From Anaerohalosphaeraceae bacterium (GTDB lineage: Bacteria > Planctomycetota > Phycisphaerae > Sedimentisphaerales > Anaerohalosphaeraceae), in assembly GCA_039679345.1 (NCBI GenBank), contig JBDKVE010000298.1, forward strand, positions 3,221 through 67,220: 64,000 nucleotides of DNA. Reading direction: 5' to 3'. This document shows positions 31,177-58,453 of the stretch, in pieces. Below the pieces are notes generated by a model. The model was not told where the DNA came from and searched no databases. It was given only the letters and a program-made list of their open reading frames with translations. The translations under genes and the position numbers were made by a program. Within the stretch, counting starts at the first letter, position 1; each line of letters opens with the position of its first letter.

Positions 31177-31256
31177 CCTGTTCCATGGAAGCATTGATTT
31201 TGGCGTCTATCGGCATGGGGGTGGTAGGGCATCTCAGACGTCGGACGTTAATTTAG
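31177..31256 (+). pseudogene. Orphan, frameshifted PEP-CTERM tail (relic 3' end of a seventh paralog)
   Basis: Reads ..P V P then, in a shifted frame, EALILASIGMGVVGHLRRRTLI*. The PAPGA core is reduced to tggaa (4 nt short). No upstream ORF exists, because it starts right at the preceding terminator T-run. It is followed by its own terminator, which is homologous to the one after 32228. Confidence 0.7.
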
Positions 31257-31276
31257 ACATGTTGAATCTTTTTTAG

Positions 31277-31307
31277 GCCGCAGGATGAAAGTGCTGCGGC
31301 TTTTTTT
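31277..31307 (+). terminator. Terminator belonging to the relic PEP-CTERM tail
   Basis: gccgcag..ctgcggc followed by ttttttt atgcgc. This is nearly the same string as at 32273..32292 (ctgcggctttttttatgcgc). Confidence 0.7.
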
Positions 31308-31592
31308 ATGCGCTGCCAGGCGTGAGAAACTCAGAACTTGCTGAAAATAGGATTTTTGCGAGCGGACAAACCTTGAAAAAGGAGCTCCGGAAAATTACCG
31401 ATTGAAAATTAGGTGAAGATACCGGTGTTCCCCGTAACTGCCAATAAAATAAGGTTTTACAATCACCTGGTGCGGCAAATTTGGTGAAAAAAAGGGCAAG
31501 TCAAAGCCTAATCGGCAATTTTCTTGGACTTTGCCCGGAGCCGGCAGGTAAAATACAATCGTGAACTCTTGTAGAATTGGAAGGGAGAAAAT

Positions 31593-32228
31593 ATGAAGAT
31601 CAGGAAATGGTTCATTGTGGGGGTAATGGTTGCGCTGGCAGACTTCGCAAGTGCGTCGGTGACTTATGGATTTTACAACATCACAAACAACAATCCCGAT
31701 GTCGCAGGACAACTTTCGGTTGTATTGGAAGACATTGGGTCAGGTAAGGTTCAGTTTAAGTTTCTCAATGTTGGAATTGTTCAATCTGCGATTGATGCTG
31801 TTTACTTTGATGATCTCGACACTCCCATCCTGACGCCTTTTTTAGTGGTTGACAAAGATAATTATGGGGATACTTCAGTAGATTTTGAATTTGGTACGGC
31901 CAGTCCGCCTAATCTTCCAGGGTGGAATACGGTTAATCCCGATTTTGCAGCTGTAGCTATTGAATCTGCAGGTGCAGTTAAGAATAGTGATCGTGTCTAT
32001 CCGAGTAACTGGCTGGGAATTGTATTCACAGCTTCATATGACAACGTTGTATCTAGCTTAAATGATAAATCACTTCGGATCGGCCTGCATGTGCAATCTA
32101 TAGGTACATCTGGTGGTAGCGATTCTTTTGTCAATAATACTTGCCCAGTTCCCGCCCCCGGTGCAATTCTGCTGGCAGCCATGGGAACGGGGTTGGTGGG
32201 TTATCTGAGACGCCGGACGGTGATTTAA
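31593..32228 (+). CDS. PEP-CTERM-anchored secreted protein (family X)
   Basis: 211 aa with a signal peptide. The C-terminus is CPVPAPGAILLAAMGTGLVGYLRRRTVI. SD gggag. Internal motif LRIGLHVQSIGTSGGSDSF. Confidence 0.85.
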   Translation: MKIRKWFIVGVMVALADFASASVTYGFYNITNNNPDVAGQLSVVLEDIGSGKVQFKFLNVGIVQSAIDAVYFDDLDTPILTPFLVVDKDNYGDTSVDFEFGTASPPNLPGWNTVNPDFAAVAIESAGAVKNSDRVYPSNWLGIVFTASYDNVVSSLNDKSLRIGLHVQSIGTSGGSDSFVNNTCPVPAPGAILLAAMGTGLVGYLRRRTVI

Positions 32229-32254
32229 ATCCAATTATCGAGTCTCTTTTTGAA

Positions 32255-32287
32255 GCCGCGGGACGGAGTGAGCCTGCGGCTTTTTTT
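32255..32287 (+). terminator. Terminator after family X gene
   Basis: gccgcggg pairs with cctgcggc, followed by ttttttt. Confidence 0.75.
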
Positions 32288-32540
32288 ATGCGCACAACGT
32301 AGCCATGTGGGGGTATTTGTTAGCGTTGGATTAATTTTCGCAGAAAATTGAATGGCAGCCTTCAATTGCAAGTTTGCAGCATTCGCTGGATGAAGAGGTT
32401 TTGTGCAGGAATTGTTAAGAGTTGTTAATTTGCAGAAAATAGTGATTTCAATCAGAACTTTCCAAACACCGCAAATGTAGTTGGCTTTATGTAAATTCAA
32501 ACGGACATCAATCAGGTTCAGACTTTTTCTGAAATAACTG

Positions 32541-32569
32541 TTGACAATATAGGACCTGTAAGGTAGAAA
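32541..32569 (+). promoter_or_regulatory. Sigma70-like promoter for A1
   Basis: TTGACA (32541..32546), 17 nt, TAGAAA (32564..32569). Confidence 0.45.
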
Positions 32570-32619
32570 AGTTCGAGTTTATGGAGAAACCTGGAGAAAA
32601 CTGTTTAGGAGAAACAACG

Positions 32620-33261
32620 ATGAGTATGAAACAATTGGTGACTATTTTTACATTAACATTGATGGCCGGAGCGGTTTATGCGGCCCCCACAAAAATTAAA
32701 GCCATTGCCGATGGCGCTCCGTTGAGCCCGGCTTATGAATTCATGGTGACAAACGGAACGCTTGGAATTTATAGTGCACCTCAAAGTTTCAGAACTTTTT
32801 GTCTTGAAGCGGGTGAAACCTTTACCAATGGTGTGACTTACTTTGCCGTAATCAATACGGCGGCGGTCAAGGGCGGTACCGGCAGTTCGGACCCGCTTGA
32901 CCCGCGGACAGCGTATCTGTACACGCAGTATATGGCCGGAGCCTATGGCTACGGTTTTGATACCGAAAATGCTCTGCAGGAAGTCATTCATTACATCGAA
33001 GGCGAACGTTCAGCACTGTCGACCGACGAGGTTTGGTCGGAAAAAGCAGAAACATACCTGAAATATGCAAATAAAAGCGGCTGGACAACCATTGGCAATG
33101 TCCGCGTAGTCAATCTGTGGACCAATTATGATGAGAAGACAAATACCTTCAGCGGTTTTGCCCAGGATCAACTGGTTCTGGTTCCCGCGCCGGGAGCGCT
33201 GCTGCTGGCTTCCATTGGAATGGCTATCGTAGGTGGCTTAAGACGTCGTCAGTCAGTTTAG
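32620..33261 (+). CDS. PEP-CTERM-anchored secreted protein, family A (A1), single conserved Cys
   Basis: The start is taken at MSMKQLV (SD aggaga). Signal peptide; RTFCLEAGETFTNGVTYFAVIN; YLYTQYMAG; ALQEVIHYIEGE; tail FAQDQLVLVPAPGALLLASIGMAIVGGLRRRQSV. Paralog of 35767..36441. Confidence 0.85.
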   Translation: MSMKQLVTIFTLTLMAGAVYAAPTKIKAIADGAPLSPAYEFMVTNGTLGIYSAPQSFRTFCLEAGETFTNGVTYFAVINTAAVKGGTGSSDPLDPRTAYLYTQYMAGAYGYGFDTENALQEVIHYIEGERSALSTDEVWSEKAETYLKYANKSGWTTIGNVRVVNLWTNYDEKTNTFSGFAQDQLVLVPAPGALLLASIGMAIVGGLRRRQSV

Positions 33262-33283
33262 TTTTGTTTATCTTGTTTTTCAA

Positions 33284-33316
33284 GGTCGAGAGTTTTATGG
33301 ACTCTCGACCTTTTTT
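33284..33316 (+). terminator. Terminator after A1
   Basis: A perfect 10-bp stem, ggtcgagagt pairing with actctcgacc, followed by tttttt. Confidence 0.85.
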
Positions 33317-33417
33317 ATTGCATTTCGCAAGCAGGCGTTATAGTCGTTATATGCGCTACACACTGCACATTTTATGCACTTTTACACGATTGTGGATAGA
33401 TAACTGAGTTTCGGACC

Positions 33418-33446
33418 TTGTACCAAAACTCGTTTTTTTTTATAGT
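33418..33446 (+). promoter_or_regulatory. Sigma70-like promoter for B1
   Basis: TTGTAC (33418..33423), 17 nt, TATAGT (33441..33446). This implies a leader of about 160 nt. Confidence 0.4.
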
Positions 33447-33610
33447 AAGCTCACTGAATTTCGATGCGGCCCAAGAGAAGATTTGCTGCCGTATCAGAGA
33501 CATTCGACCTGGGGGGTTGAATTCGACTCAATCGTTTCTTTTGGATTTGAAAGATAACGCCGGATGGTGTTATCAGTCTACACTCTAAAAATATTTTTGG
33601 GGGATTTACT

Positions 33611-34300
33611 ATGAAAAAGAATGTGATTGCAGTACTGCTTCTGGTGATTGCTGTTTCTGTGCCGTGTCTGGCGGCCGAGACTTTAACCATTACGAATCTA
33701 AACTACGCAAATTATGCAAAAATTGTAAGCATTAAAAGTGACCTTTATACCGGCTCTCTCTATGCCGGCGGTTTGGTTTTGACAACTGATGAAGGTACGC
33801 TGTATGGTTTTTGTATCGATATGTATGATCATTCCAATACAGGTATTTTTGAAAAATCAAGCCTTGAACATGCTGCTTTGAGCGTCAATAACCCGAATGG
33901 TCCGATGTCGGCCGCCAAAGCGGATAATGTCCGCAGATTATACGATGTGGCGTACTATAATTATGTTCTGCCGGAAATGGAAAAAGCCCCGGCTGCCGCA
34001 AATAAGGATATTGCCGCTGCATTCCAGTTGTCGGTATGGAATCTGATTTATGATAATGATTTTTCGATAACCAACGGGGCCGGCAGTTTTTACGCCACCT
34101 CCAGTGGGGCCTTTGTAAGTCTGGCCAATACCTGGATGGGACTTTTGGGCAATGCCAGCCTGTCACCGGTGGGCGCGCTGCTGAATGATCGTTATCAGGA
34201 TTTTGCGGTCCCGGTTGCGGTCCCGGCCCCGGGAGCATTAATTCTGTCATCCCTGGGCATGATGCTGGTTGGATATCTCAGACGCGGTCGAACGATGTAA
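33611..34300 (+). CDS. PEP-CTERM-anchored secreted protein, family B (B1), single conserved Cys
   Basis: 229 aa with a signal peptide. GTLYGFCIDMYD; AAAFQLSVWNLIYDND; tail VPVAVPAPGALILSSLGMMLVGYLRRGRTM. Paralog of 36752..37453. Confidence 0.88.
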   Translation: MKKNVIAVLLLVIAVSVPCLAAETLTITNLNYANYAKIVSIKSDLYTGSLYAGGLVLTTDEGTLYGFCIDMYDHSNTGIFEKSSLEHAALSVNNPNGPMSAAKADNVRRLYDVAYYNYVLPEMEKAPAAANKDIAAAFQLSVWNLIYDNDFSITNGAGSFYATSSGAFVSLANTWMGLLGNASLSPVGALLNDRYQDFAVPVAVPAPGALILSSLGMMLVGYLRRGRTM

Positions 34301-34322
34301 ATCGATAAATACTCCAGCAAAA

Positions 34323-34349
34323 ACCGCAGTATAAACACTGCGGTTTTTT
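34323..34349 (+). terminator. Terminator after B1
   Basis: accgcagt pairs with actgcggt, followed by tttttt. Confidence 0.8.
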
Positions 34350-34456
34350 GCTATTGATGGAAACGAGAAAAAGTGAAAATGCCCGGCACAGGCTATGCAA
34401 TCGTTACAGGGCGACTCATTATAAAGAAATTATCAGGGATATTCAGTGAGTTCAAC

Positions 34457-34485
34457 TTGATTTTATACTCGTATTTTCATAGAGT
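34457..34485 (+). promoter_or_regulatory. Sigma70-like promoter for family Y gene (conserved with 35549..35577)
   Basis: TTGATT, 17 nt, TAGAGT. The -35 context caacttgatttt is identical to that at 35546. Confidence 0.55.
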
Positions 34486-34496
34486 GATACTTATGT

Positions 34497-34618
34497 ATGA
34501 AGTCATTTTGCGGTTTACCCAGGATGGGGGTTTTGATTTTTTGGGACAGCACAAAAATTCTATTTTGCATTATCAGAGGACTGTTTCATCTGATATGGAA
34601 TAATCCAAGGCTGGATTG
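34497..34618 (+). promoter_or_regulatory. Conserved non-coding leader element, copy 1
   Basis: It shares these ordered blocks with 35590..35713: atgaagt, tttgc, acccaggatgggggtt, ggacagcacaaa, tgtttcatctgata, ggattg. The reading frames across the blocks differ between the copies. The terminal hairpin aatcca/tggatt versus atccg/cggat shows a compensatory pair change. Confidence 0.55.
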
Positions 34619-34682
34619 AGAATTTAGACTTTGCTTTGGCTTGGCAAAGATGAAAGAACAACTATTTTTGAGAGAAATCAAA

Positions 34683-35471
34683 ATGAAAAAAATATCGATA
34701 CTCATGTTTGCGGTCGCCTTTCAGGCCGTGCTATTTGCAGGGCCGACACTGGATTTGAGTGCTGACGGTGCTTCAGGAAGCATTGATGGTGCTTACTTTA
34801 GACAGACGGCCGCACAATCCACCGGAACAGGCAGTATTCATGCCTTTGTTCGAATGGAAGATGACAATGATAAAGATGCGATTGAGCAGGGATATAATAC
34901 AGACCATCGTCCCCTGAACAAAGGGGCACAATATGATGAGAATTATTCGCCGACATTCACGCGATCTTTATTACTGTCGCTGGTTCCAACCATGAATATA
35001 AATGGAATACTATACAGGGAATTTCTCCTGGATATCAATGAATCTAACTCCGGAACTGAAAGTGAACTATCGCTTGATAATATTAAAATCTATCTGGCAC
35101 ATTCAGGGGATCTGTTCGGTAAACTTCCGCCATCCAATCCTGAAACAGGCGAAGTTGCGACATTAATTTACGACCTCGATAAAGCATCTGATAACTGGAT
35201 TAAGCTGGATTATAGTTTGAATACCGGCAGCGGCAGTGGGGATATGTTTGCCTATATCCCGGATTCTCTATTCAAGACTGAGAATGGGTCGTATGTCTAT
35301 TTTTACTCGATGTTCGGAGAGAATATTGCTGCGGATTCCGGTTTTGAGGAATGGGCGGTCCGACTCAATGTCCCGGTTCCGCCAGTGGCGGTACCTGCTC
35401 CGGGTGCTTTGATGCTGGCTGCGATGGGAATGAGCCTGGTAGGCTATCTCAGACGGGGTCGAAGCCTGTAA
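34683..35471 (+). CDS. PEP-CTERM-anchored secreted protein (family Y)
   Basis: The start is taken at MKKISILMFAVAF. Signal peptide; STGTGSIHAFVRMEDD..IEQGYNTDHRP; ILYREFLLDINESNSGTESELSLDNIKIYL; tail VAVPAPGALMLAAMGMSLVGYLRRGRSL. Confidence 0.85.
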   Translation: MKKISILMFAVAFQAVLFAGPTLDLSADGASGSIDGAYFRQTAAQSTGTGSIHAFVRMEDDNDKDAIEQGYNTDHRPLNKGAQYDENYSPTFTRSLLLSLVPTMNINGILYREFLLDINESNSGTESELSLDNIKIYLAHSGDLFGKLPPSNPETGEVATLIYDLDKASDNWIKLDYSLNTGSGSGDMFAYIPDSLFKTENGSYVYFYSMFGENIAADSGFEEWAVRLNVPVPPVAVPAPGALMLAAMGMSLVGYLRRGRSL

Positions 35472-35548
35472 ATGACTGTACAGGCCGTACAGACGCTACA
35501 AGAGGTCCGGTTTGGATGAAAAAAACAGGGATTGTCCGAGCTACCAAC

Positions 35549-35577
35549 TTGATTTTTAACCTGTTTTTTTGTAGAAT
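35549..35577 (+). promoter_or_regulatory. Sigma70-like promoter for A2 (conserved with 34457..34485)
   Basis: TTGATT (35549..35554), 17 nt, TAGAAT (35572..35577). Confidence 0.55.
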
Positions 35578-35589
35578 GAAACATACATA

Positions 35590-35713
35590 ATGAAGTTTTG
35601 CTTTGTGACTCACCCAGGATGGGGGTTGCGGTTTTCAGGACAGCACAAACACTTTTTATGACAAGGTCAGGTGATTGTTTCATCTGATATTAAATGATCC
35701 GGCGGTCGGATTG
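35590..35713 (+). promoter_or_regulatory. Conserved non-coding leader element, copy 2
   Basis: See copy 1. The same block order and similar spacing occur upstream of a non-homologous gene. Confidence 0.55.
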
Positions 35714-35766
35714 TTAATTGAAATTTACCTTGGTAAGGGTAATCGAATACTGTTTAAATGAGGGGA

Positions 35767-36441
35767 ATGAAGATGAAAACAAAATTGATGATGGTGGCGG
35801 TTCTTTTGTCATTGACGGCTCTGCCGGCGATGGCGGCAGTGAATCTGAAGATGCTTAACGACAGAACACCGGCGTACACGATGCAGGTTCAGGAACAGAT
35901 CGGCGATGTCAAGCCGGGTGTGTATACCTCGATTTGCATCGAGAAGGATGAGACGTTTACTCCTGGTGTTTCGTATTATGGGGTGATGAACGAGAAATTT
36001 GAAGCCAGGATGGGCGGCAATGTTTGGTCTGGCGAAATTGGCAAGAGTGCCGTGGTTGCATCAGGTGGAACGGATAAGCTTGATTATAGTTCAGCCTGGC
36101 TGTTCACCCAGTTTATTACCACGAATAACTATCAGGATGAGGCCGCACTTCAGAATGCGATTCATTATATCGAAGCTGAAAATACAGCCTTGACTGACAT
36201 TCTAATCGGCTCTGATAAGTGGCTTCCGTCTAAGAATCTGTGGCAGAAATATGTTGATGCCGCATTGGCTTCAGGTGCGAACAGCTACGGCGGAGTTCGT
36301 GTTCTGAATATTTGGAAGGATGATACAAAAAGTCAGTTTGCACAGGATCAGATCGTGTATGTCCCGGCCCCGGGAGCGATCGTTCTGGCCTCGATGGGCA
36401 TGGCCTTTGTTGGCTACCTGAGACGTCGCCAATCTATCTAA
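35767..36441 (+). CDS. PEP-CTERM-anchored secreted protein, family A (A2), single conserved Cys
   Basis: The start is taken at MKMKTKL (SD agggga). TSICIEKDETFTPGVSYYGVMN; WLFTQFITT; ALQNAIHYIEAE; tail FAQDQIVYVPAPGAIVLASMGMAFVGYLRRRQSI. Confidence 0.85.
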   Translation: MKMKTKLMMVAVLLSLTALPAMAAVNLKMLNDRTPAYTMQVQEQIGDVKPGVYTSICIEKDETFTPGVSYYGVMNEKFEARMGGNVWSGEIGKSAVVASGGTDKLDYSSAWLFTQFITTNNYQDEAALQNAIHYIEAENTALTDILIGSDKWLPSKNLWQKYVDAALASGANSYGGVRVLNIWKDDTKSQFAQDQIVYVPAPGAIVLASMGMAFVGYLRRRQSI

Positions 36442-36475
36442 GACGCTCAAACAATTTAGAAATTGTACTATCGCA

Positions 36476-36507
36476 AGCCGCGGGATCGAAAATTCCGCGG
36501 CTTTTTT
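36476..36507 (+). terminator. Terminator after A2
   Basis: gccgcgg (36477..36483) pairs with ccgcggc (36495..36501), followed by tttttt. Confidence 0.8.
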
Positions 36508-36751
36508 ATTAATTTTTGTTCAATTTTTACCATTTCTAATTTCTTAAGTCCTTTTTATAGAAGGACTTGAAATTTTACCGTCCAATAATAAGTAGTTCTA
36601 CGGATTGCAATTCTGGCTGGAATCTCCATAATGGATTATATAAGTCGTAGCGTGTGTAACGATATAGACTTTTGTGAGGGGAGAAATCCTACCTGAGTAG
36701 GAGGGTTTCTCCAAAGTAGAGAATACGATCTTTTTGGAAAGGAGATTCGAA

Positions 36752-37453
36752 ATGGAGAAGAAACTGTTTATTGTATTGACCTTGGCGGCCATCCTCGCCT
36801 GCCCAGTCATGGCTGGGCCAACCCTTGGAGACACAATTAATGTGGCGACATACAATTATAATGTCGGATTAGGAGTGACAATTTATAATCCTGTCACAGC
36901 GGCAAACCAAAGCACAATGGCTAGTATTTTTAAGCTTAATAGCAACTATGGAACCCTTTATGGTTTCTGTGTTGACTTGTATGACACTGCTTATGTACCT
37001 TCCAGCTATAAAGGTGTTGAGGTTGCGGAAGTTCCTTCGGATATGAACTTAGGGGCAGGGATGGGAGATGGTAATGCCGAGTTGATTGCGAAACTTTATT
37101 CAAAGGCTTATACAAACACTGTAACAACAAACAAGATTCAAGCCGCAGCATTTCAGTTAGCCGTCTGGAATATAATTTATGACGATGATTCTACAATTGC
37201 TGGTGGAAGTTTCTATGTGGTGAATCCGACGGGCGATGTAAGCGATGCAATAGATCAAGCAAACACTTGGTTAACAAACTTGTCAGATCACAATGGGAGT
37301 AGCAGTTTACTTGGTTTAAGAAATATTGATTCTACTTTTGGTGAAAGTAAATATCAAGATTATGTAATACCAGTTCCCGCTCCTGGAGCGATTCTGCTGG
37401 CTTCGATGGGTATGGGGCTGGTTGGCTGGCTGAGACGGCGTCAGGCTCTGTAA
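36752..37453 (+). CDS. PEP-CTERM-anchored secreted protein, family B (B2), single conserved Cys
   Basis: The start is taken at MEKKLFIV (SD aaggag). GTLYGFCVDLYD; AAAFQLAVWNIIYDDD; tail VIPVPAPGAILLASMGMGLVGWLRRRQAL. Confidence 0.88.
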   Translation: MEKKLFIVLTLAAILACPVMAGPTLGDTINVATYNYNVGLGVTIYNPVTAANQSTMASIFKLNSNYGTLYGFCVDLYDTAYVPSSYKGVEVAEVPSDMNLGAGMGDGNAELIAKLYSKAYTNTVTTNKIQAAAFQLAVWNIIYDDDSTIAGGSFYVVNPTGDVSDAIDQANTWLTNLSDHNGSSSLLGLRNIDSTFGESKYQDYVIPVPAPGAILLASMGMGLVGWLRRRQAL

Positions 37454-37487
37454 GCTGTTACTTTGTAAACGATTAACACGTGTTCAA

Positions 37488-37517
37488 AGCCGCGGAATGG
37501 ATGTCCGCGGCTTTTTT
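37488..37517 (+). terminator. Terminator after B2
   Basis: agccgcgga pairs with tccgcggct, followed by tttttt. Confidence 0.85.
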
Positions 37518-37961
37518 GTTTCTACAAAGCTTTGCCGGTATTCGGATTTTGGGTATTTCTTCATTGTCGTAAAAGCTCCTAATCTCCCTTTGATAAATGT
37601 GACTGCAGCATCCCGCTCTATTTTATGAATCAAGCCTGTTGGGTTATCGGACTGTTGTTGGATCTCAAGAGTCAGTCTCTATGCACCATTTAATGTTCGT
37701 AGGGCAATTTTGAGACGAGGGGGAATAAGGGATGTTACAAAAGTCATATATTTGCGTAATTTGGTAAAAATTCAGTCAAAAAAGCCGATTCTAAGTTAGT
37801 ATAGATGATAGAGGCAGATTGGGATTGCGGGGATGTTTTGTTTAGAAGCGGCTTAAGGATAAATGAATTGTATATAACTATTGTATTTATAACAGCTTGT
37901 AGCTTAATTCAGACATTGGGTTGAGACGTTCTTGTCTGACGGAATGGATAAAGGATTTAAT

Positions 37962-40900
37962 ATGGCTGTATTGTCTCAAAAAGCGACTAATAGACATAAA
38001 AGAACAAATGATCCATTGAGTCCGATGGGTTATTCCTTATGGATGGTTTTTGCCGGCCTTCTGTTCTTAACGTTTACTGTAAAAGCAGAAACATTGACGA
38101 TTACAGATGGCGTTGTGACATACAACAGCTTGTCCAATATGACGGTGAACATGAGTGGGGTGTCGGAATTGCATATTACCAGTGCGACAGCTCCGCTGGC
38201 CGGGTGCACGATTAATCTGGACTCTGTGGATTCATTTTTATTTCTGGAAAATGTCAAGCCTTCAACGGCAAACTCGACCTACCTGAGTCAGATTAAGTTC
38301 AACGGGGCAAACGCGGTTCTGGGGACCAATGTCCGGGTTGTGGAATATGCGGCTGGGGCGGTCATTATACCGCAATCCTCGGTCTTCCAGCCATTGCAGG
38401 TTTTTACGGAAGAGAATTTTCAGGGCAATTCCGCCTATTTAAATCAATACACGGCCTATAATACCAGTTCTCTGGGAACAATGGCATCATCGATCAGTTC
38501 TTTTATTTTAAAGCGGGGCTATACCGCGACATTTGCCCAGAATGAAAACGGCACTGGCTACAGCAAGAACTATGTGGCGCAGGACTGTGATCTGGAAATT
38601 GGTGTTCTTCCGGGCAAGCTCAACGATAAGATTAATTTTGTCCGGGTGTTCCCCTGGCGGTGGGTGAGCAAGAAGGGCATCGCAGGCAACATTGGCTCCA
38701 ACCTGAATATTAAGTGGTGGTATAACTGGAACCTCGACCAGAATTCAACCCTGGACAAGGAATATGTCCCCATACGTCAGAATCGCTGGTGGCCGGGCCT
38801 GAATCAGAATTGGCAGACGCGAGGCGCCAGTCATCTGCTGGGCTATAACGAGCCGGATAATTCAAGCGAAGCCAATATCGCCGTCAGCGATGCGATATGG
38901 TCATGGCCGGATTTGCTTGGGACGGGGCTGCGTGTGGGTTCGCCTGCGCCGACTGATGGCGGGCGGAGCAGTTGGCTGTATCCGTTCATCCAGCATGCGG
39001 ATGCTGCTGATTTGCGGGTCGATTTTGTGGCAGTACATTACTATTGGTGCTACAATCCATCCAATGCCAGCGGTGCGGCAACGCAAATGTACAATTTCCT
39101 TAAAGAGGTCCATGACAACACAGGCCGGCCTATCTGGGTGACGGAGTGGAACAATGGTGCCAACTGGACCGGATGCGGCGATCCGACGTATGCTCAGCAG
39201 GCGGCCGCTATTGGCGCAATGATTGATATGCTCGACAGTACACCGTGGGTCGAGCGGTATGCGATTTATAACTGGGTGGAGGACGTGCGGCGTGTGGAAT
39301 GGGATGACGGCTGGCCGACCGATGCAGGTGCTATCTATCGTGACCAGGTTTCTCCGATTGGCTACCTGCAGGAGGTTCCTGGTTCCGGACGAAGCACCAA
39401 CGCCATTTATTGCTTCGATGAGAATTTCCGGGACAGTTCAGGCAATGGCAACAATCTTCTGAGGTATGGAGCGCCGAAGCTGACCGCAGGACGGGATGGC
39501 AACGTCCTTGTTCTGGATGGGGCAGACGATTATCTGGTGCTGCCAACGCATATTGGCGAATGTGCTGATTTTACATTTGCCGCCTGGGTCTATTGGAACG
39601 GAGGCAATCCATGGCAGCGTATTTTTGATTTTGGAAACAATACAACACAGTATATGTTTTTAACCCCTTCCTCCGGCGGTAATACGCTCCGTTTTGGGAT
39701 TACGACTTCAGGGAATAGTTCCGGTGAACAGCAGATTAATACGTCCGGATTGACTGTGGGACAGTGGACGCATGTGGCCGTTACCCTGAACAGCAATGTC
39801 GGCACAATTTATGTCAACGGTACACCGCGGGCGACGAATGCCTCGATGACGATTAATCCATCCGATTTCCAGCCTTCCAAAAATTACCTCGGCAAGAGCC
39901 AGTGGCCTGATCCGCTGTTCAATGGGATGATGGATGATGTTATGATTGCGGATTATGCGTTGACTGCTGACCAGATTGCGGAGTTGATGACCACGACCCA
40001 GCCGGCTCAGTTTATTACGGCTCCTCTGAATATCATTAGTGTTGCTGCCGGTTCAGAAGAGTCAGGTAACCCGGCCGTCAATTCATACGACCGTAACCGA
40101 GGGACTCGCTGGGCCAATGATGGGACTGTTGCCAATGCCTGGATCAAATACGACCTGGGGGCTGTCTCTGAAATTGATCGCGTAAAAGTGAAATTGAATA
40201 GTGGTAATTCCCGCACCTATCCTGTTCGGATCGAGGTTGATGGTGTTCAAGTCTTCAGCGGCAATACGAATATGACCAGTGGATATTGGCAAACCTCATT
40301 TACACCCACCCGCGGCCGTTATGTTACGATTACCATGACAGGCAACAATAGTGCCGGCAGCGGATGGTTCAGTATTTTAGAGTCGCAAATTTGGAGTCCT
40401 CTCAATAAGCCGCCATTCTTCAATACAAATGCTTTTAACGAGGTTGACGCGACCGAGGGTGCTGTTTACAGCAGTACTCTGGCTGATAACGCTAGTGATC
40501 TAGAAAACGGTTTGCTGATATTCAGCAAAGACGCCGGCTCAGACTGGCTGATTGTATCGCCGGACGGTACGCTTTCAGGCATCCCGCAGGATTCAAATGT
40601 CGGAGCCAACGCCTTTACAGTTCGCGTTACCGACCCCAAGGGATTTTATGATACTGCCACGATGACGATTCAAGCAGCCAACGTCTATTCCGGGGTTCGA
40701 GGATTAGAGGACTTATACGGACTCGCTGCCCGGTGGTTGATGCAGAATTGTGTAGATACCCCTGCCTGCAATGGTGCTGATTTGAATGCTGATAGCAGTG
40801 TTGATATGTCGGATGTTTCGGTGTTGGCCAGTCACTGGCTGTCTGACGAAAATCTTCAGCTCCATTTCAAATTTGACGAAATGAGCGGCGATGCTGCCAT

Positions 40901-49853: not shown

Positions 49854-51155
49854 ATGAAAATCACGGTCGTTGGAGTCGGTTATGTTGGATTGGTTGCGGC
49901 AGCATGTCTGGCCGATGGAGGCAACCATGTCATCTGTGTGGATACGGACGAAAAGAAGATCGAAGGCCTCAAGAAAGGCATCATCCCTATCTATGAGCCG
50001 GGTTTGGCCGAAATTGTCGCCCGTAATGAAAAGTCCGGCCGTCTGACCTTTACCACCAATTTGAAAGAGGGTGTGGATAATTCTCTGCTGATACTTCTGG
50101 GGGTAGGGACTCCCAGTGCAGCGGATGGCTCGGCCGATATTTCAGCGGTATTGAGTGCGGCCGGTCGGATTGCTGAAATTATGACCAGCTATAAAATTAT
50201 TGTGACTAAAAGCACAGTACCGGTTGGGACGCACAAGATTGTCAACAAATGGATTCAGTCCAAGACTGAAATCCCGTTTGATTATGTCAGTAATCCGGAG
50301 TTTCTTAAGGAAGGCTCCGCGGTTGAAGATTTTATGAAGCCTGACCGGGTTATTATCGGGACGACCAATCCGGCGGTGATGGAAATCATGCGGGAATTAT
50401 ATAATCCCTTCATGCGGAAAAGCAGCCGAATTCTGTTTATGGACCCGGCCAGTGCCGAAATGGCCAAGTATGCCGCCAATACAATGCTGGCAACCCGTGT
50501 TTCGTTTATGAATGAACTGTCGATGCTGTGTGAAAAGGTTGGTGCCGACATCGAACAGGTTCGGGCCGGCATGGGCAGCGATTCTCGAATCGGCAACGCT
50601 TTCTTGTTTGCCGGGGTGGGCTATGGGGGCAGTTGTTTTCCCAAGGATGTCCGGGCGTTGATTTATATGGGCAATCAGGCCGGCGTGCCGATGTCCATTG
50701 CTCAATCCGTACAAAAAGTCAACATGGACCAGCAGGCCCAGTTTGCCGACAAAATTATCAGTTATTTCAAAGGACAGTCCAATGTCCAGCTTGGCGTCTG
50801 GGGGCTTGCGTTCAAGGCCCGCACGGATGATATCCGTGAATCCCCGGCGTTATTCTGCATCGAAAAATTTCTGTCTGCTGGAATCAAGGTTGTGGCCTTT
50901 GATCCGGAAGCGATGGCTCCGACCCGCCAGAAGCTCGGAGATAAAATTTGCCTGGTGGACAATGGCTATGATGTTCTGGATGGTTCTGCTGCATTAGTGA
51001 TCTTTACTGATTGGCAGGAATTCCGAACCCCGGACCTGGAACAGATTGCCAAGCGGCTGCTGAAGCCGCTGATATTTGACGGCCGCAATCTCTATACCCC
51101 GACATTCGTCAAGCGATTCGGCATTGAATATCATTGTATCGGACGTCCCTGTTAA
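49854..51155 (+). CDS. ugd: UDP-glucose 6-dehydrogenase
   Basis: 433 aa. N-terminal MKITVVGVGYVGLV. Catalytic GGSCFPKD. Confidence 0.92.
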   Translation: MKITVVGVGYVGLVAAACLADGGNHVICVDTDEKKIEGLKKGIIPIYEPGLAEIVARNEKSGRLTFTTNLKEGVDNSLLILLGVGTPSAADGSADISAVLSAAGRIAEIMTSYKIIVTKSTVPVGTHKIVNKWIQSKTEIPFDYVSNPEFLKEGSAVEDFMKPDRVIIGTTNPAVMEIMRELYNPFMRKSSRILFMDPASAEMAKYAANTMLATRVSFMNELSMLCEKVGADIEQVRAGMGSDSRIGNAFLFAGVGYGGSCFPKDVRALIYMGNQAGVPMSIAQSVQKVNMDQQAQFADKIISYFKGQSNVQLGVWGLAFKARTDDIRESPALFCIEKFLSAGIKVVAFDPEAMAPTRQKLGDKICLVDNGYDVLDGSAALVIFTDWQEFRTPDLEQIAKRLLKPLIFDGRNLYTPTFVKRFGIEYHCIGRPC

Positions 51156-51165
51156 GGCAGTGTAA

Positions 51166-52119
51166 ATGAAAAAAATTCTGGTCACCGGCGCGGCAGGGTT
51201 TATCGGGTCACATCTGTGTGAACGACTCATCAGGGATGGTTTGACTGTGGTGGGCCTGGATAATTTCGACCCTTTTTATGATATCGCAATCAAGAAAAAA
51301 AACATTGCCGGCCTAATTCAGTCGTCGCGATTCAAACTGGTTCAAGGGGATATCCGTGACCGAACCCAGGTTGAGGCTGTTTTGCAGAGTGATACGTTTG
51401 ATGCAATTGTTCACCTCGCGGCCAAGGCGGGGGTGCGGCCTTCGATTGCCGATCCGGCCGGCTATGTGGATACCAACCTCAATGGTACAGTGGTCATGCT
51501 GGAAGCGGCCCGTGCGGCGAAAGTGAAGAAATTTATCTTTGCCTCCAGTTCGAGTGTTTATGGGAATAATCCGAAGACACCGTTTTCAGAGACGGATAAT
51601 GTGGATTTTCCGATTTCTCCGTATGCGGCGACTAAAAAGGCCGGTGAATTGATTTGTTATACCTTTAGCCATTTGTATCAGATGGATATGACCTGCCTGC
51701 GATTTTTTACCGTCTATGGTCCGCGTCAGCGGCCGGACCTGGCGATTCATAAATTTGCCCGCCTGATTGAACAGGGTAAACCTATTCCGATGTATGGCGA
51801 TGGCTCCATGGAACGCGATTTTACCTTCATTGATGACATCATCAATGGGGTGGTTGCAGCGATTGAGCGATGCAGCGGCTATCATATTTATAATCTCGGC
51901 GAATCGAGGCCGGTGCGTCTGGATACATTGATTGCAGAGATTGAAAAGGCCCTCGGCAAAAATGCCAGGATTGAATTATTGCCCGAGCAGCCCGGCGATG
52001 TCAAGCGGACCTTTGCCGATGTGGATAGAGCCGTTCGGGAACTGGGTTACTGCCCGAAGACACATCTGGCTGATGGACTGAAACAATTTGTTGCCTGGCT
52101 CAGGCAAGTGCATATCTGA
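51166..52119 (+). CDS. NAD-dependent epimerase, UDP-glucuronate 4-epimerase-like
   Basis: 317 aa. Contains VTGAAGFIGSHL, LDNFDPFYD and SPYAATKKAGE (YxxxK). Confidence 0.8.
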   Translation: MKKILVTGAAGFIGSHLCERLIRDGLTVVGLDNFDPFYDIAIKKKNIAGLIQSSRFKLVQGDIRDRTQVEAVLQSDTFDAIVHLAAKAGVRPSIADPAGYVDTNLNGTVVMLEAARAAKVKKFIFASSSSVYGNNPKTPFSETDNVDFPISPYAATKKAGELICYTFSHLYQMDMTCLRFFTVYGPRQRPDLAIHKFARLIEQGKPIPMYGDGSMERDFTFIDDIINGVVAAIERCSGYHIYNLGESRPVRLDTLIAEIEKALGKNARIELLPEQPGDVKRTFADVDRAVRELGYCPKTHLADGLKQFVAWLRQVHI

Positions 52120-52185
52120 ATGTCGCCATTTGATATGCATAATGCAGGTCCGAATGATGAAATCAATTTTCTGATAGCAAGTGCT

Positions 52186-52220
52186 CAACAACCAACAACT
52201 AAAAACTAAAACCAATAACC
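52186..52220 (+). repeat. G-poor A/C-rich leader tract with ACCAATAACC
   Basis: caacaaccaacaactaaaaactaaaaccaataacc ends 8 nt before the gmd ATG. There is no SD. Confidence 0.6.
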
Positions 52221-52228
52221 GTACCCCT

Positions 52229-53233
52229 ATGAAAAAAGCATTAATTACCGGCATTACGGGGCAGGATGGGTCGTATCTGACCGAGCTACTGCTGGCCAGG
52301 GGCTATGAAGTCTATGGCATCATCCGCCGGGCCTCGACATTCAATACCGACCGGATCGACCATCTCTATCAGGACCCGCACAACCAGCCAAAATTAAAGC
52401 TGATCTATGGTGACCTGACTGACGGCGGCAACCTGTCCACGATCTTAAACGATATCCAGCCCGATGAAGTCTATAACCTCGGTGCCCAAAGTCATGTCCG
52501 CGTCAGTTTCGACCAGCCAATCTATACGGCCAATGTCGATGCCCTCGGGACGCTGCGTCTGCTGGAAGCCCTGCGGATGATGAAGACCCCGCCGCGGTTT
52601 TACCAGGCCTCCAGTTCCGAGATGTACGGCAAAGTGGTCGAAACTCCGCAGACCGAGACCACCCCGTTTTATCCCCGCAGCCCCTATGCCTGTGCCAAGG
52701 TGTACAGCTTCTGGCAGACGGTCAATTACCGCGAGGCGTATAACCTGTTTGCCTGCAATGGCATCCTGTTTAACCACGAATCTCCCCGCCGGGGTGAAAC
52801 CTTTGTGACCCGCAAGATTACCCGTGCCGCGACCCGGATCAAGGAAGGGCTGCAAGATAAGCTCTATTTGGGTAATATTGATGCCAAACGCGACTGGGGC
52901 TTTGCCGGCGATTATGTGGAGGCCATGTGGCTGATGCTCCAGCAGGATAAGCCCGACGATTATGTTGTGGCCACCGGCGAGACCTATTCGGTGCGGCAGT
53001 TCCTCGATGAGGTCTTTGGCCACTTAAATCTGGATTGGCAGCAATATGTGGCGATTGACCCCAAGTATTTCCGTCCGACGGAGGTGGATTTGCTGCTGGG
53101 CAATCCCGCCAAAGCGAAAAAGCTGCTGAACTGGCAGCCAAAAGTCAATTTCAACCAGTTAGCTCAGATGATGACCGAGTCGGATTGGCGGCTTGCCAAA
53201 AAAGAACGCCTGCTCAAAGAGCACGGGCAATAA
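52229..53233 (+). CDS. gmd: GDP-mannose 4,6-dehydratase
   Basis: [22 protein letters not shown].. The [21 protein letters not shown] signature is present. Confidence 0.95.
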
Positions 53234-53240
53234 ACAAAGA

Positions 53241-55223
<1,983 letters not shown>

Positions 55224-55226
55224 TCC

Positions 55227-55889
55227 ATGAGCAATTATTTCGCCCACCAGAGCGCCTGTATTGACCAGCCCTGTACGATCGGGGACGGTACAAAAATCTG
55301 GCATTTTTGCCATGTGTGTGCCGGTGCAATCCTCGGTAACAACTGCAATCTCGGGCAGAATGTCTTCATTGCCGCTGGCGCCGTCATTGGCGATAACGTC
55401 AAGATTCAGAATAATGTCTCCGTCTATGATGGAGTCATCTGTGAGCAGGATGTATTTTTAGGCCCCAGTTGTGTCCTGACCAATGTGACCAATCCCCGCT
55501 CGCAGGTTAGCCGCAAGGGATTATACGAAAAAACCCTGATTCGTCGTGGTGCAACCGTGGGGGCCAATGCGACAATCGTCTGCGGCGTTACGATTGGCCG
55601 CTATGCCTTCATTGCCGCTGGTGCTGTGGTTACCCGGGATGTGCCCGATTATGCCCTGATAGTGGGGGTTCCCGGCCGGCAAAAAGGCTGGATGAGCCGT
55701 CACGGGATTTGCTTGCCAAAACCGGATCAAGACGGGATAATGATATGCCCGGAAAGCGGCTGGCGATATCGATGCGACGAGTCGGGTTTTCTTTACTGTC
55801 TGGATTGGAATGAAGAAAAACCGCTGTCCGCAGATAAAGCAGTCGGAACAGAATTGTATAGAATATTAAAAAATAAAAATGAACGATGA
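55227..55889 (+). CDS. wbpD: Hexapeptide-repeat N-acetyltransferase, WbpD/WlbB-like
   Basis: 220 aa of left-handed beta-helix repeats (IGDGTKIWHF.., IGDNVKIQNNVSV.., GATVGANATIVCGVTIG). Confidence 0.75.
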   Translation: MSNYFAHQSACIDQPCTIGDGTKIWHFCHVCAGAILGNNCNLGQNVFIAAGAVIGDNVKIQNNVSVYDGVICEQDVFLGPSCVLTNVTNPRSQVSRKGLYEKTLIRRGATVGANATIVCGVTIGRYAFIAAGAVVTRDVPDYALIVGVPGRQKGWMSRHGICLPKPDQDGIMICPESGWRYRCDESGFLYCLDWNEEKPLSADKAVGTELYRILKNKNER

Positions 55890-55952
55890 GAATGAATCTT
55901 GTTGAATTGAAGAACTGAATGTAATTCTCAATTCAGATTGTGGAGTATGTCA

Positions 55953-57053
55953 ATGCAGGTTCCATTGTTGGATTTAAAAGCACAGTACGCAACCATTAAA
56001 GACGAAGTCTTGGAACAGATCAATGAGGTTCTCGATTCCCAGCAGTGTATCGGCGGTCCCAAGGTTGCTGAACTGGAAAGCAAAGTCGCCGAACTGTGCG
56101 AATGCAAATATGCTGTGGGTATGTCCAGCGGCACCGATGCCTTGCTGGCCAGCCTCATGGCCCTCGGTGTTGGTCCCGGCGATGAGGTGATTACCACGCC
56201 GTTTACCTTCTTTGCCACCGCCGGCTGCATTGCCCGTGTGGGGGCCAGACCGGTCTTTGTCGATATCGATCCCAAAACCTATAATATTAATCCCTCGCAC
56301 ATCGAGTCGGTGATAACCAAAAAGACCAAGGCGATTATGCCGGTGCATTTGTATGGCCAGGTAGCCGACATGGATCCGATGATGCAGATTGCCGGCCAGG
56401 CCTCACTGGCGGTCATTGAAGATGCCTGTCAGGCAATTTCCGCGACGTATAAGGGTAAAAAGGCCGGTGCCATCGGCACTTGCGGCTGCTTCAGCTTTTT
56501 TCCCAGCAAAAATCTCGGCGGCATTGGGGATGGCGGCATGACCGTCACCAGCGATGAAGATCTGTATAAAATGCTGGTCTGGATGCGGAACCACGGCAGC
56601 GAACCGAAATATTATCACAAATATATCGGCGGCAATTTCCGTCTCGATCCGATTCAGGCCGCAGCGCTGCTGGTCAAACTGCCGCATCTGGACAACTGGT
56701 CTCAGAGGCGTCGTAAAAATGCGACCTACTACACAAAAAAATTCAAAAAGTCCCCCATCCAGACGCCGGTGATTGCTGACGATTGTGAATCGATTTTCAA
56801 TCAGTATGTCATCCGCGTTCCGCGGCGGGATGAATTGATCAAGCACCTGCAGGCCAATAAAATCGGCTGTGAGATCTATTATCCCGTACCGTTGCACCAG
56901 CAGGAATGTTTCGCTTATCTGGGTTACAAATCCGGCGATCTGCCCGAGGCAGAAAAGGCCGCCCGCGAAGTCCTCGCGCTGCCGATTTATCCGGAACTGA
57001 CTGATGAAATGAAAGATTTTGTCATTAAAACCATTCTGGATTTTTACAAATAG
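55953..57053 (+). CDS. wbpE: DegT/DnrJ/EryC1/StrS aminotransferase, WbpE/WlbC-like
   Basis: MQVPLLDLKAQY.. Contains GTDALLASLMALG and FSFFPSKNLG (PLP Lys). The start is taken at ATG 55953 after SD ggag. Confidence 0.8.
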   Translation: MQVPLLDLKAQYATIKDEVLEQINEVLDSQQCIGGPKVAELESKVAELCECKYAVGMSSGTDALLASLMALGVGPGDEVITTPFTFFATAGCIARVGARPVFVDIDPKTYNINPSHIESVITKKTKAIMPVHLYGQVADMDPMMQIAGQASLAVIEDACQAISATYKGKKAGAIGTCGCFSFFPSKNLGGIGDGGMTVTSDEDLYKMLVWMRNHGSEPKYYHKYIGGNFRLDPIQAAALLVKLPHLDNWSQRRRKNATYYTKKFKKSPIQTPVIADDCESIFNQYVIRVPRRDELIKHLQANKIGCEIYYPVPLHQQECFAYLGYKSGDLPEAEKAAREVLALPIYPELTDEMKDFVIKTILDFYK

Positions 57054-57139
57054 ACAATTGTATCTGAGGTTCGAGTAAAGCCGAGCTTCGGAAATTGGAT
57101 TTAAATAGACCATTATTCACATAAAACAGGAGGCTCTCT

Positions 57140-58453
57140 ATGGCGTCACTGGAGCAGAAAGTCGCAAAGAAAAATGTCCTTGTTGGGGTACTCGGCTTGG
57201 GCTATGTCGGTCTTCCGCTGGCACGGGAATTCGCATCTGCCGGCATCAAGGTCCTTGGCTTTGATATCGACGAAAAAAAAGTCAAAACACTCAACTCCGG
57301 CCGCAGCATCATCAAGCATATTCCTCATGAACAGGTTAAAACAATGGTTAAATCCGGCCTGTTTTCCGCCACCAGCGACATGTCGCAGATCAAAAAGCCT
57401 GATGCGATTTTGATTTGCGTCCCTACTCCGCTGACCAAAAACCGCGAGCCGGATATGCAGTTTATCGAAAGTTCTGCTCGTACGATTGCAAAATCCCTGC
57501 GGAAGGAGCAGTTGATTGTCCTGGAAAGCTCCACCTACCCCGGCACGACGCGGGAAGTCATGATGCCGATTTTGGAGCAGACCGGTCTTGTGGCGGGCAA
57601 AGATTTCTATCTGGCTTTTTCGCCGGAACGTGAAGATCCGGGCAATAAGAACTATACCACAAAAACCATCCCCAAGATTGTCGGCGGCCTGACACCCAAA
57701 TGCTGTGAACTGGCCCGGCAGGTGTACAGCTTTGCGATCCAGACCCTGGTGCCGGTCTCCTCCCTGGAAGCGGCGGAAGCGGCCAAGATTCTCGAAAATA
57801 CCTATCGCTGTATCAACATCGCGATGGTCAACGAACTCAAGATGCTCTTTGACCGCATGGGTATTGATGTCTGGGAAGTGATTCGCGCCGCCGCCACAAA
57901 ACCGTTCGGCTATCATCCGTTCTATCCGGGTCCCGGTCTGGGTGGTCACTGCATTCCGATTGACCCGTTCTATCTGACCTGGAAGGCCCGTCAGTACCAC
58001 ATGGCTACCCGCTTTATCGAGCTGGCCGGCGAGATTAATACCGACATGCCGCATTATGTGATTCATCGTACCATGGAGGCCCTCAACAATCGTAAAAAGA
58101 GCCTCAATGGAGCTAAGGTCCTGATTCTTGGCCTGGCCTATAAACCCGATATTGATGATGTCCGCGAGTCACCGTCGCTGGAACTGATTGAATTGCTTAA
58201 AGAGCGGGGCGCCAAAGTGGATTATAATGATCCGTATGTGCCTGCGACGCATAAAATGCGTGAATATGACCTGAAGATGACCAGCAAGAAACTGACGGCA
58301 TCTCTGCTGAAAAGCTATGATGTAGTGCTGATTTCCACCAATCACAGCGATTATGATTATAAGTGGATTGTCAAAAATGCCAAACTGGTAATTGACACTC
58401 GCAATGCCTGTGTTAATGTCAAGGCTGGGCGTAATAAAATCATCAAAGCCTAA
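57140..58453 (+). CDS. wbpA: UDP-N-acetyl-D-glucosamine (or -mannosamine) 6-dehydrogenase, WbpA/TviB family
   Basis: 437 aa. Contains VGVLGLGYVGLPLA and GLGGHCIPIDP. SD aggagg. Confidence 0.85.
   Translation: MASLEQKVAKKNVLVGVLGLGYVGLPLAREFASAGIKVLGFDIDEKKVKTLNSGRSIIKHIPHEQVKTMVKSGLFSATSDMSQIKKPDAILICVPTPLTKNREPDMQFIESSARTIAKSLRKEQLIVLESSTYPGTTREVMMPILEQTGLVAGKDFYLAFSPEREDPGNKNYTTKTIPKIVGGLTPKCCELARQVYSFAIQTLVPVSSLEAAEAAKILENTYRCINIAMVNELKMLFDRMGIDVWEVIRAAATKPFGYHPFYPGPGLGGHCIPIDPFYLTWKARQYHMATRFIELAGEINTDMPHYVIHRTMEALNNRKKSLNGAKVLILGLAYKPDIDDVRESPSLELIELLKERGAKVDYNDPYVPATHKMREYDLKMTSKKLTASLLKSYDVVLISTNHSDYDYKWIVKNAKLVIDTRNACVNVKAGRNKIIKA

Follow-up and report, generated by a model that had tools for sequence, protein, structure and literature searches.

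Thioester domains (TEDs), which carry an internal Cys–Gln thioester, have been described only in Gram-positive bacteria (PMC4450167, PMC6194298). In class I TEDs, a β-barrel is combined with a three-helix bundle, with the Cys on strand C, the Gln on the last strand, a TQxxΦW motif on helix α2 and about 10 residues between α3 and strand P (PMC6194298). Here we examine a 64,000-nucleotide stretch of DNA from an Anaerohalosphaeraceae bacterium of the phylum Planctomycetota (assembly GCA_039679345.1, contig JBDKVE010000298.1, positions 3,221–67,220 of the forward strand; hereafter the window), in which a tandem array of genes encodes small exported proteins with a common C-terminal tail. Four of these genes, all on the + strand, encode two protein families: A1 (32620..33261) and A2 (35773..36441), and B1 (33611..34300) and B2 (36752..37453). 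With a probability that we put at roughly 75%, their products are single-domain class-I-like TEDs that are exported by a signal peptide, end in a PEP-CTERM tail and are predicted to form a thioester between a lone Cys and a Gln of the last strand.

Three motifs mark published TEDs. The thioester Cys is part of [YFL]CΦζ on β-strand C; the central helix α2 bears TQxxΦW, whose Gln and Trp adjoin the bond, hydrogen-bond the Cys backbone and are not essential for the bond; and the bond-forming Gln belongs to a weak ΦQζΦΦ on the last β-strand (PMC4450167, PMC6194298). TQxxΦW is not universally conserved (PMC4450167, PMC6194298); in proven TEDs, the bonding Cys and Gln alone are (PMC6194298). The two residues are 129 positions apart in CpTIE and 153 in PnTIE (PMC4450167), and as a criterion for a bonding Gln we used a position about 130–190 residues after the Cys. 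Walden et al. detected the mass deficit of about 17 Da expected of a thioester in 12 of 12 sequence-predicted TEDs that they tested (PMC4450167).

Structure models retrieve thioester domains

One member of each family was modelled with AlphaFold2, giving a predicted local distance difference test score (pLDDT) of 91.3 and a predicted template-modelling score (pTM) of 0.84 for B1, and a pLDDT of 86.3 for A1. When the models were compared with 350,542 PDB chains using Foldseek, the top eight matches of A1 were all TEDs, led by 5a0g (E = 1.9e-4, probability 1.0). These comprised CpTIE-TED (5a0g and 5a0d, TM-score about 0.54) and PnTIE-TED (5a0n) at probabilities of 0.99–1.0, and the next match had a probability of 0.06. 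B1 retrieved only the N-terminal TED of Cpa (4c0z, probability 0.99) and CpTIE-TED (5a0d), again followed by a drop to 0.06.

In the B1 model, C68 lies at the end of strand 62–68, and Q139 and W143 lie in helix 129–147, the second of three; helix 167–177 is followed by strands 188–191 and 198–200, with Q196 in the loop two residues before the latter. In the A1 model, C61 adjoins strand 56–59, Q120 is in helix 113–126 (also the second of three) and Q182 is inside the last strand, 176–187. This topology agrees with that published for class I TEDs. On these models, both families have the TED fold, a predicted β-barrel with a three-helix bundle. The large β-sandwich insert of class II is absent from both models, and we therefore describe the domains as class-I-like. 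We regard it as highly probable that A1, B1, A2 and B2 are homologues of TEDs.

A probable bonding glutamine

A preliminary description of this locus, made from the DNA letters and their open reading frames (ORFs), had reported a single Cys per mature protein in the pattern [FI]C[ILV][DE], and its residues and coordinates proved correct in all four proteins. The Cys is C61 in A1 (32800–32802; FRTFCLEAGE, numbered from M14), C68 in B1 (33812–33814; YGFCIDMYD), C60 of the ORF in A2 (C57 from M4; 35935–35937; TSICIEKDE) and C79 of the ORF in B2 (C73 from M7; 36968–36970; YGFCVDLYD). Of the other Cys residues, C19 of B1 and C23 of B2 belong to the signal peptide, and C8 of the long A1 ORF precedes the likely start. 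All four contexts (FCLE, ICIE, FCID and FCVD) fit [YFL]CΦζ, the Ile of A2 being a conservative departure. Family-A homologues have the Cys in 121/121 cases and full-length family-B homologues in 249/253, and its conservation in both families argues that the pattern is not due to chance.

The same description had paired this Cys with a Gln 59–72 residues downstream, namely A1 Q120 (32977–32979), B1 Q139 (34025–34027, with Trp143), A2 Q132 of the ORF (Q129 in the earlier numbering; 36151–36153) and B2 Q141 of the ORF (earlier Q135; 37154–37156). The positions are right, and the Gln, which stands in the context AAFQL[SA]VWN in family B and ALQx[VA]IHYIE in family A, is highly conserved, although 'invariant' overstated the case a little (116/121 in family A, 243/253 in family B). 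The reading of the proteins as relatives of TEDs and the choice of Cys are supported; the chosen Gln corresponds to that of the TQxxΦW motif on helix α2, rather than to the likely bonding partner. In family B this motif reads FQLSVW or FQLAVW, with Phe for Thr, and in the window copies of family A it reads LQEVIH or LQNAIH, with Leu for Thr and His for Trp. That His, which had been raised as a caveat, is explained by the homologues of family A: of 121, 77 have Trp here, 42 have His and 2 have Tyr. A second candidate that had been suggested in family A (YTQY/FTQF) is Gln in just 65/121 homologues.

A better candidate lies close to the C terminus, where all four proteins have a ΦQD motif 6–8 residues before the VPAPGA of the tail: RYQDFAV in B1 (Q196; 34196–34198), KYQDYVI in B2 (Q208 of the ORF; 37355–37357), FAQDQLVL in A1 (Q182; 33163–33165) and FAQDQIVY in A2 (Q196 of the ORF; 36343–36345). 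The distance from the Cys to this Gln is 121–136 residues in the window proteins, against 129 in CpTIE, with a median of 124 (range 105–147) in family B and a range of 111–141 in family A. This spacing is typical of class I TEDs and removes the earlier concern that the Cys–Gln distance was about half of that in characterized domains. The conservation of the two residues follows the published rule for TEDs and favours the last-strand Gln. In family A, C61 and Q182 are each present in 121/121 sequences, against 116/121 for Q120. In family B, Q196 is present in 101/101 and 127/130 sequences and C68 in 99/101 and 128/130, with W143 in 101/101 and 130/130 and Q139 in 121/130.

Patterns of loss and covariation point the same way. 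Just two full-length family-B sequences lack Q196, and both belong to the set of four in which the Cys is missing (Fisher p = 1.9e-4), whereas Q139 is replaced in 9 family-B members that retain the Cys (p = 0.15). In a mean-field direct-coupling analysis (DCA) of 254 family-B sequences (effective number, Meff, 183; 15,225 pairs), C68–Q196 ranked 27 and C68–Q139 ranked 165. Among the highest-ranking pairs were I69–A189 (rank 4), L57–F198 (rank 5) and G66–F198 (rank 6), and an antiparallel register that pairs 66 with 198 would place 68 opposite 196. Couplings and co-loss together are suggestive support for pairing of the Cys with the last-strand Gln, and we consider it probable that these two residues form the thioester.

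The Cys is replaced by Ser or Val in four family-B homologues (P0174, P0223, P0334 and P0349). Two Ser variants among them keep the C-terminal Gln, and a Ser–Gln oxo-ester is conceivable in these; the two without the Gln are also without the Cys. Five acidic residues are invariant or nearly so in family A (E63, E66, E127, E129 and D183, in A1 numbering from 32620). Two surround the Cys motif (CLExxE), two belong to the helix (YIExE) and one follows the candidate bonding Gln (QD). E63, E66, E127 and E129 are absent from published TED motifs. Together, these residues may form a metal, ligand or catalytic site.

Sequence comparisons and competing explanations

At the level of sequence, family B is linked to known TEDs. 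The Pfam TED profile (PF08341; gathering cut-off 22 bits) matched B1 with 15.3 bits (E = 0.027, residues 67–151) and B2 with 15.0 bits (E = 0.033, residues 78–181 on profile positions 3–97), and both alignments start at the Cys. The profile also matched 7 of 14 close family-B homologues and 38 of 130 cluster representatives (best E = 4.7e-7), and the family-B homologue P0230, from a member of the Phycisphaerales, passes the cut-off with 26.3 bits. The NCBI name of P0230 is 'Cys-Gln thioester bond-forming surface protein'. Profile–profile comparison of families A and B aligns both the Cys motif and the helix motif. When full-length profiles were used, the probability reached 99.6%, a value that we discounted because it is inflated by the common signal peptide and PEP-CTERM tail.

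Several results weigh against the assignment. B1 and B2 remain below the Pfam cut-off; A1 and A2 have no Pfam TED match, and family A as a whole is nearly invisible to that profile (1 of 36, at E = 0.11). Of the two profile models suggested in the preliminary description, PF08341 thus scores a homologue above its cut-off and the window proteins below it, and the TQXA model (TIGR03934) gave no match to any of the six PEP-CTERM proteins in an NCBIfam scan to E = 10. HMMER filtering removes most matches weaker than about E = 0.1 from such a scan, and very weak TQXA matches would go unlisted. Searches of PDB sequences with B1, P0230 and four family profiles found no TED. The matches that they did return were spurious, among them glutamate receptors, which share 'FCID', papillomavirus E2 and the T6 pilin. 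Restricted to the core, the comparison of A with B is marginal (probability 37%, E = 3.6e-4, 80 columns), and the placement of family A among TEDs therefore leans mainly on its structure model and motifs. The Foldseek TM-scores of 0.41–0.55 are moderate. The co-loss signal amounts to two loss events, two of the Ser variants are related to each other, and the couplings are low-powered, given the small number of effective sequences. Finally, the ORFs scanned from the window included no exosortase gene (EpsH/XrtA family).

Scores below the Pfam threshold would also fit domains that have a TED-derived fold without the thioester and act as non-covalent binding or structural modules of a PEP-CTERM surface layer. 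The Cys would then be a free thiol, or serve other chemistry such as an intermolecular disulfide or metal binding with the acidic residues of family A. The five invariant acidic residues of family A, four of which lie outside the published TED motifs, and the few family-B members with Ser or Val for Cys, speak for such a role. We nevertheless judge it unlikely, because the Cys and the last-strand Gln are the two positions that are invariant across thousands of divergent members, as in proven TEDs (PMC6194298), because they are lost together, and because every one of the 12 sequence-predicted TEDs tested by Walden et al. had the mass deficit (PMC4450167).

A half-size domain in which the Cys bonds to the Gln of the helix (Q139 in B1, Q120 in A1) can draw on the high conservation and closeness in sequence of the two residues, and on the fact that this Gln adjoins the bond in solved TEDs (PMC6194298). 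In those structures, however, the TQxxΦW Gln hydrogen-bonds the Cys backbone and is dispensable for the bond (PMC4450167, PMC6194298). In our families it is replaced in nine family-B and five family-A members that retain the Cys, and its coupling to C68 ranks far behind that of Q196. The models, moreover, show the TED fold at full size, C-terminal strands included, and we consider the helix pairing very improbable. It is scarcely credible that these are ordinary PEP-CTERM proteins of unrelated fold with coincidental motifs. The weak Pfam E-values of B1 and B2 could be taken that way, yet two independently modelled families retrieve TEDs alone from the whole set of PDB chains, with probabilities falling steeply thereafter; the order, spacing and secondary-structure context of the three motifs are as expected of TEDs; and a homologue, P0230, passes a curated Pfam cut-off. 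We therefore retain the reading of the four proteins as class-I-like TEDs with a predicted bond between the Cys and the last-strand Gln.

Export signals and anchor

A1, of 213 amino acids (aa) from M14, runs from a signal peptide through the TED-like domain to a tail in which VPAPGA begins at 33181; it is 100% identical to P0014, an NCBI entry from an Anaerohalosphaeraceae metagenome-assembled genome (MAG) of the Planctomycetota. A2 (P0076; 222 aa per NCBI, in an ORF that opens at 35758; VPAPGA from 36361) is 43% identical to A1, with all three motifs aligned. B1 has 229 aa (VPAPGA from 34220) and B2 (P0134) has 233 aa per NCBI, in an ORF that opens at 36734 (VPAPGA from 37373).

The four genes belong to an array of six on the same strand, each encoding a small exported protein that ends in VPAPGA, a hydrophobic helix and RR(R/G). 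As judged from its sequence, this ending is a PEP-CTERM-type sorting signal (PF07589/TIGR02595). In A1, B1, A2 and B2 it takes the form VPAPGA(L/I)…G(Y/W/G)LRR(R/G), with PAP as the motif and not PEP, and is combined with an N-terminal signal peptide; helices at both termini are seen in the models of A1 and B1. The Pfam PEP-CTERM profile scores B2 at 22.1 bits, above its cut-off of 20.7, and the other three at 8.5–17.1 bits. None of the named NCBIfam PEP-CTERM families reaches its cut-off on any member tested.

A widespread family

A core-only family-B profile, without signal peptide or tail, matched 5,253 of 1.84 billion cluster representatives at E ≤ 1e-3 and 2,068 at E ≤ 1e-10. Nearly all of the 150 matches listed are 180–310 residues long. 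At least 258 proteins belong to family A. In GTDB genomes, 152 loci were confirmed by a pattern-limited scan, found in the Planctomycetota (Phycisphaerae, Sedimentisphaerales, Pirellulales and Isosphaeraceae), the Betaproteobacteria (isolates of Methyloversatilis and Paucibacter, together with Gallionella, Rhizobacter and Rhodocyclaceae), Thioalkalivibrio (Gammaproteobacteria), Rhodobacteraceae (Alphaproteobacteria), Armatimonadota and one Leptolyngbya MAG. Among translated GTDB loci, the Cys and helix motifs are present in 14/14 and xQD before the PEP motif in 13/14, with SQT in the Thioalkalivibrio MAG. Cultured strains with members belong to Methyloversatilis, Paucibacter and the Anaerohalosphaeraceae.

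A different architecture appears in P0246, a metagenomic protein of 3,220 aa in which three stretches match the family-B TED profile (E = 2.6e-35) alongside 13 SdrD_B repeats, DUF11 and SpaA-like domains and C-terminal RTX repeats. It looks, from its domain composition, like a stalked version of the same type of TED, and the RTX repeats suggest that it is possibly secreted by a type I system.

Organization of the gene array

The other two genes of the array (31593–32228 and 34683–35471) encode PEP-CTERM proteins that are unrelated to families A and B. One of these products has a single Cys directly before VPAPGA and the other has no Cys; as degenerate TEDs they were rejected, showing no detectable similarity to the TED families (hhalign probability below 1%). 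Intrinsic-terminator-like hairpins lie 3′ of A1 (33282..33312, + strand), A2 (36475–36503) and B2 (37486–37514), and because such a hairpin follows each of them, A1, A2 and B2 look like separate transcription units. In all, 14 terminator-like sites were found, against 6.8 expected from shuffles. Promoters of the σ54 type, as reported for pepA, were not enriched (35 matches against 37 expected).

Upstream of the array, a 23-codon ORF at 31185–31257 encodes a sorting tail alone (MEALILASIGMGVVGHLRRRTLI*), and a 20-nucleotide (nt) terminator segment at 31294–31313 is identical to 32274–32293, which follows the 31593–32228 gene. Together, the tail-only ORF and the repeated segment suggest the relic of a seventh PEP-CTERM gene, left by a deletion inside a formerly longer tandem array. 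Some 100 nt that precede the 34683 gene (34507–34606) are 71–79% identical to a stretch ahead of A2 (35602–35700); the genes downstream of the two copies are unrelated, and the repeated stretch may be a shared promoter or 5′ leader. Across the PEP-CTERM array (32000–38000), the G+C content falls to 0.42–0.45, compared with 0.47–0.57 in most other 2-kb blocks of the window.

Pairing of A and B genes is not a general feature of the homologues: P0011 is solitary, and P0230 is encoded beside an unrelated PEP-CTERM protein without Cys. The array is flanked by genes for glycoside hydrolases, a sulfatase and housekeeping functions, with a nucleotide-sugar and amino-sugar cluster downstream. This cluster (49854–58453) contains two UDP-glucose/GDP-mannose dehydrogenase genes, three epimerase/dehydratase genes including one for GDP-mannose 4,6-dehydratase, and genes for a GFO/IDH/MocA-family oxidoreductase and a DegT/DnrJ/EryC1 aminotransferase. 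With it, the cell could make amino-sugar polymers, a conceivable source of an amine nucleophile for the thioester.

A proposed model for covalent attachment

By homology with characterized TEDs, we infer thioester formation, surface display through exosortase, and covalent adhesion to a target. In the model that we propose, the signal peptide would export the protein, and on folding, with no cofactor, the Cys at the end of strand C would attack the side-chain amide of the last-strand Gln, releasing ammonia and leaving a buried Cys–Gln thioester. The Gln and the Trp or His of the helix motif (QxxΦ[WH]) would pack against this bond and take no part in forming it. An exosortase would presumably process the PEP-CTERM tail, so that the domain is displayed on the cell surface. 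There, an amine, by analogy, or another nucleophile on a specific target would attack the thioester, and the resulting amide bond would tie the cell to that target. With the bonding Gln only 6–8 residues from the sorting motif and no stalk between them, the reactive site would lie near the structure to which the anchor is joined.

PEP-CTERM proteins have been linked to the binding of exopolysaccharide to cells in flocculation (PMC9850573). Given this link and a host that is an anaerobic polysaccharide degrader, plausible targets are amine-bearing polymers, particles and neighbouring cells. We tentatively suggest that the exosortase system might use TEDs on PEP-CTERM anchors as a covalent 'glue'. 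In that case, exopolysaccharide with amine groups, or the surface of particles or neighbouring cells, would react with the thioesters, so that cells are cross-linked into flocs or fixed on polysaccharide, and PepA-type proteins would be remote members of the superfamily. If true, this would supply a chemical mechanism for the PEP-CTERM class and extend thioester adhesion to environmental diderm bacteria.

In the literature searched, we found nothing that links thioester domains with PEP-CTERM, exosortases, Planctomycetes or any diderm phylum. The preliminary description had held that a thioester-type adhesin on a PEP-CTERM anchor would be new, which stands for this literature and less fully for the databases, in which some members are already annotated automatically as TED proteins. 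Already known, then, are the fold, the motifs and the predicted chemistry, and a minority of members pass the Pfam TED profile and are auto-named as thioester proteins. What sets these proteins apart is the PEP-CTERM anchor, the diderm hosts, the single-domain architecture without a stalk, the altered helix motif and an ecology other than that of a pathogen. The TED fold and its reactive Cys–Gln pair are here combined with a PEP-CTERM anchor in a very large family. Should the bond form, covalent adhesion would be a general bacterial strategy and not a speciality of Gram-positive pathogens, and PEP-CTERM proteins, the molecular role of which is largely unknown, would gain a testable mechanism. 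Minimal, stalk-less TEDs of about 170 residues could also serve as chemistries for protein engineering.

Relation to described systems

An internal Cys–Gln thioester for covalent bonding to a target is also the predicted chemistry's point of contact with complement C3 and C4 and with α2-macroglobulin, including the bacterial α2-macroglobulins of Gram-negative species. In those proteins the Cys and Gln are four residues apart in a CGEQ motif, and the bond is exposed by proteolytic activation. Their fold and motif are unrelated to those of the window proteins. Walden et al. consider that the thioesters of bacterial TEDs and of the complement/α2-macroglobulin family evolved independently (PMC4450167).

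The PEP-CTERM protein PepA (NF033554), which acts in the flocculation of Aquincola and Zoogloea, resembles the window proteins in its signal peptide, C-terminal PEP-type motif, transmembrane helix and Arg cluster. Like other substrates of the PEP-CTERM/exosortase system, the window proteins are small and occur as multiple paralogues in one genome. Matches to NF033554 recur in A1, B1 and proteobacterial relatives (L017–L076), and some span most of the domain. The scores are 27.8 bits for A1, 19.7 for B1 and 45.9 for the best proteobacterial relative, all short of the cut-off of 80. On these sequence matches, PepA may be a remote relative of the TED families. Overexpression of PepA raises cell-bound exopolysaccharide (PMC9850573), and by analogy a covalent cross-linker could fill such a role.

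The closest described relatives are the class I TEDs of Gram-positive adhesins: CpTIE of C. perfringens (5A0G/5A0D), PnTIE of S. pneumoniae (5A0N), the N-terminal TED of S. pyogenes Cpa (4C0Z) and SfbI-TED. Gram-positive TIE (thioester-isopeptide-ester) adhesins are anchored by LPXTG and sortase and carry the TED on a stalk of isopeptide or ester domains, whereas the window proteins have a PEP-CTERM/exosortase-type anchor in a diderm bacterium and no stalk, the mature protein of about 170–180 residues being one TED. They are also encoded by tandem, separately terminated paralogues, score below the Pfam TED threshold and have F/L-Q-x-x-Φ-W/H in the helix motif, where class I TEDs have TQxxΦW. 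The host here is a free-living anaerobic polysaccharide degrader and not a pathogen, and its target cannot be assumed to be a host protein. Because the Pfam threshold is not reached and the sortase and stalk architecture (LPXTG, stalk domains) is absent from the window proteins, we file them as divergent members of the TED superfamily rather than as TIE proteins. With class I TEDs they share the predicted fold found by Foldseek, which has no β-sandwich insert, and the motifs [YFL]CΦζ and ΦQζΦΦ, with the altered counterpart of TQxxΦW between them; order and secondary-structure placement are alike, with a Cys–Gln spacing of 121–136 residues here and 129–153 there.

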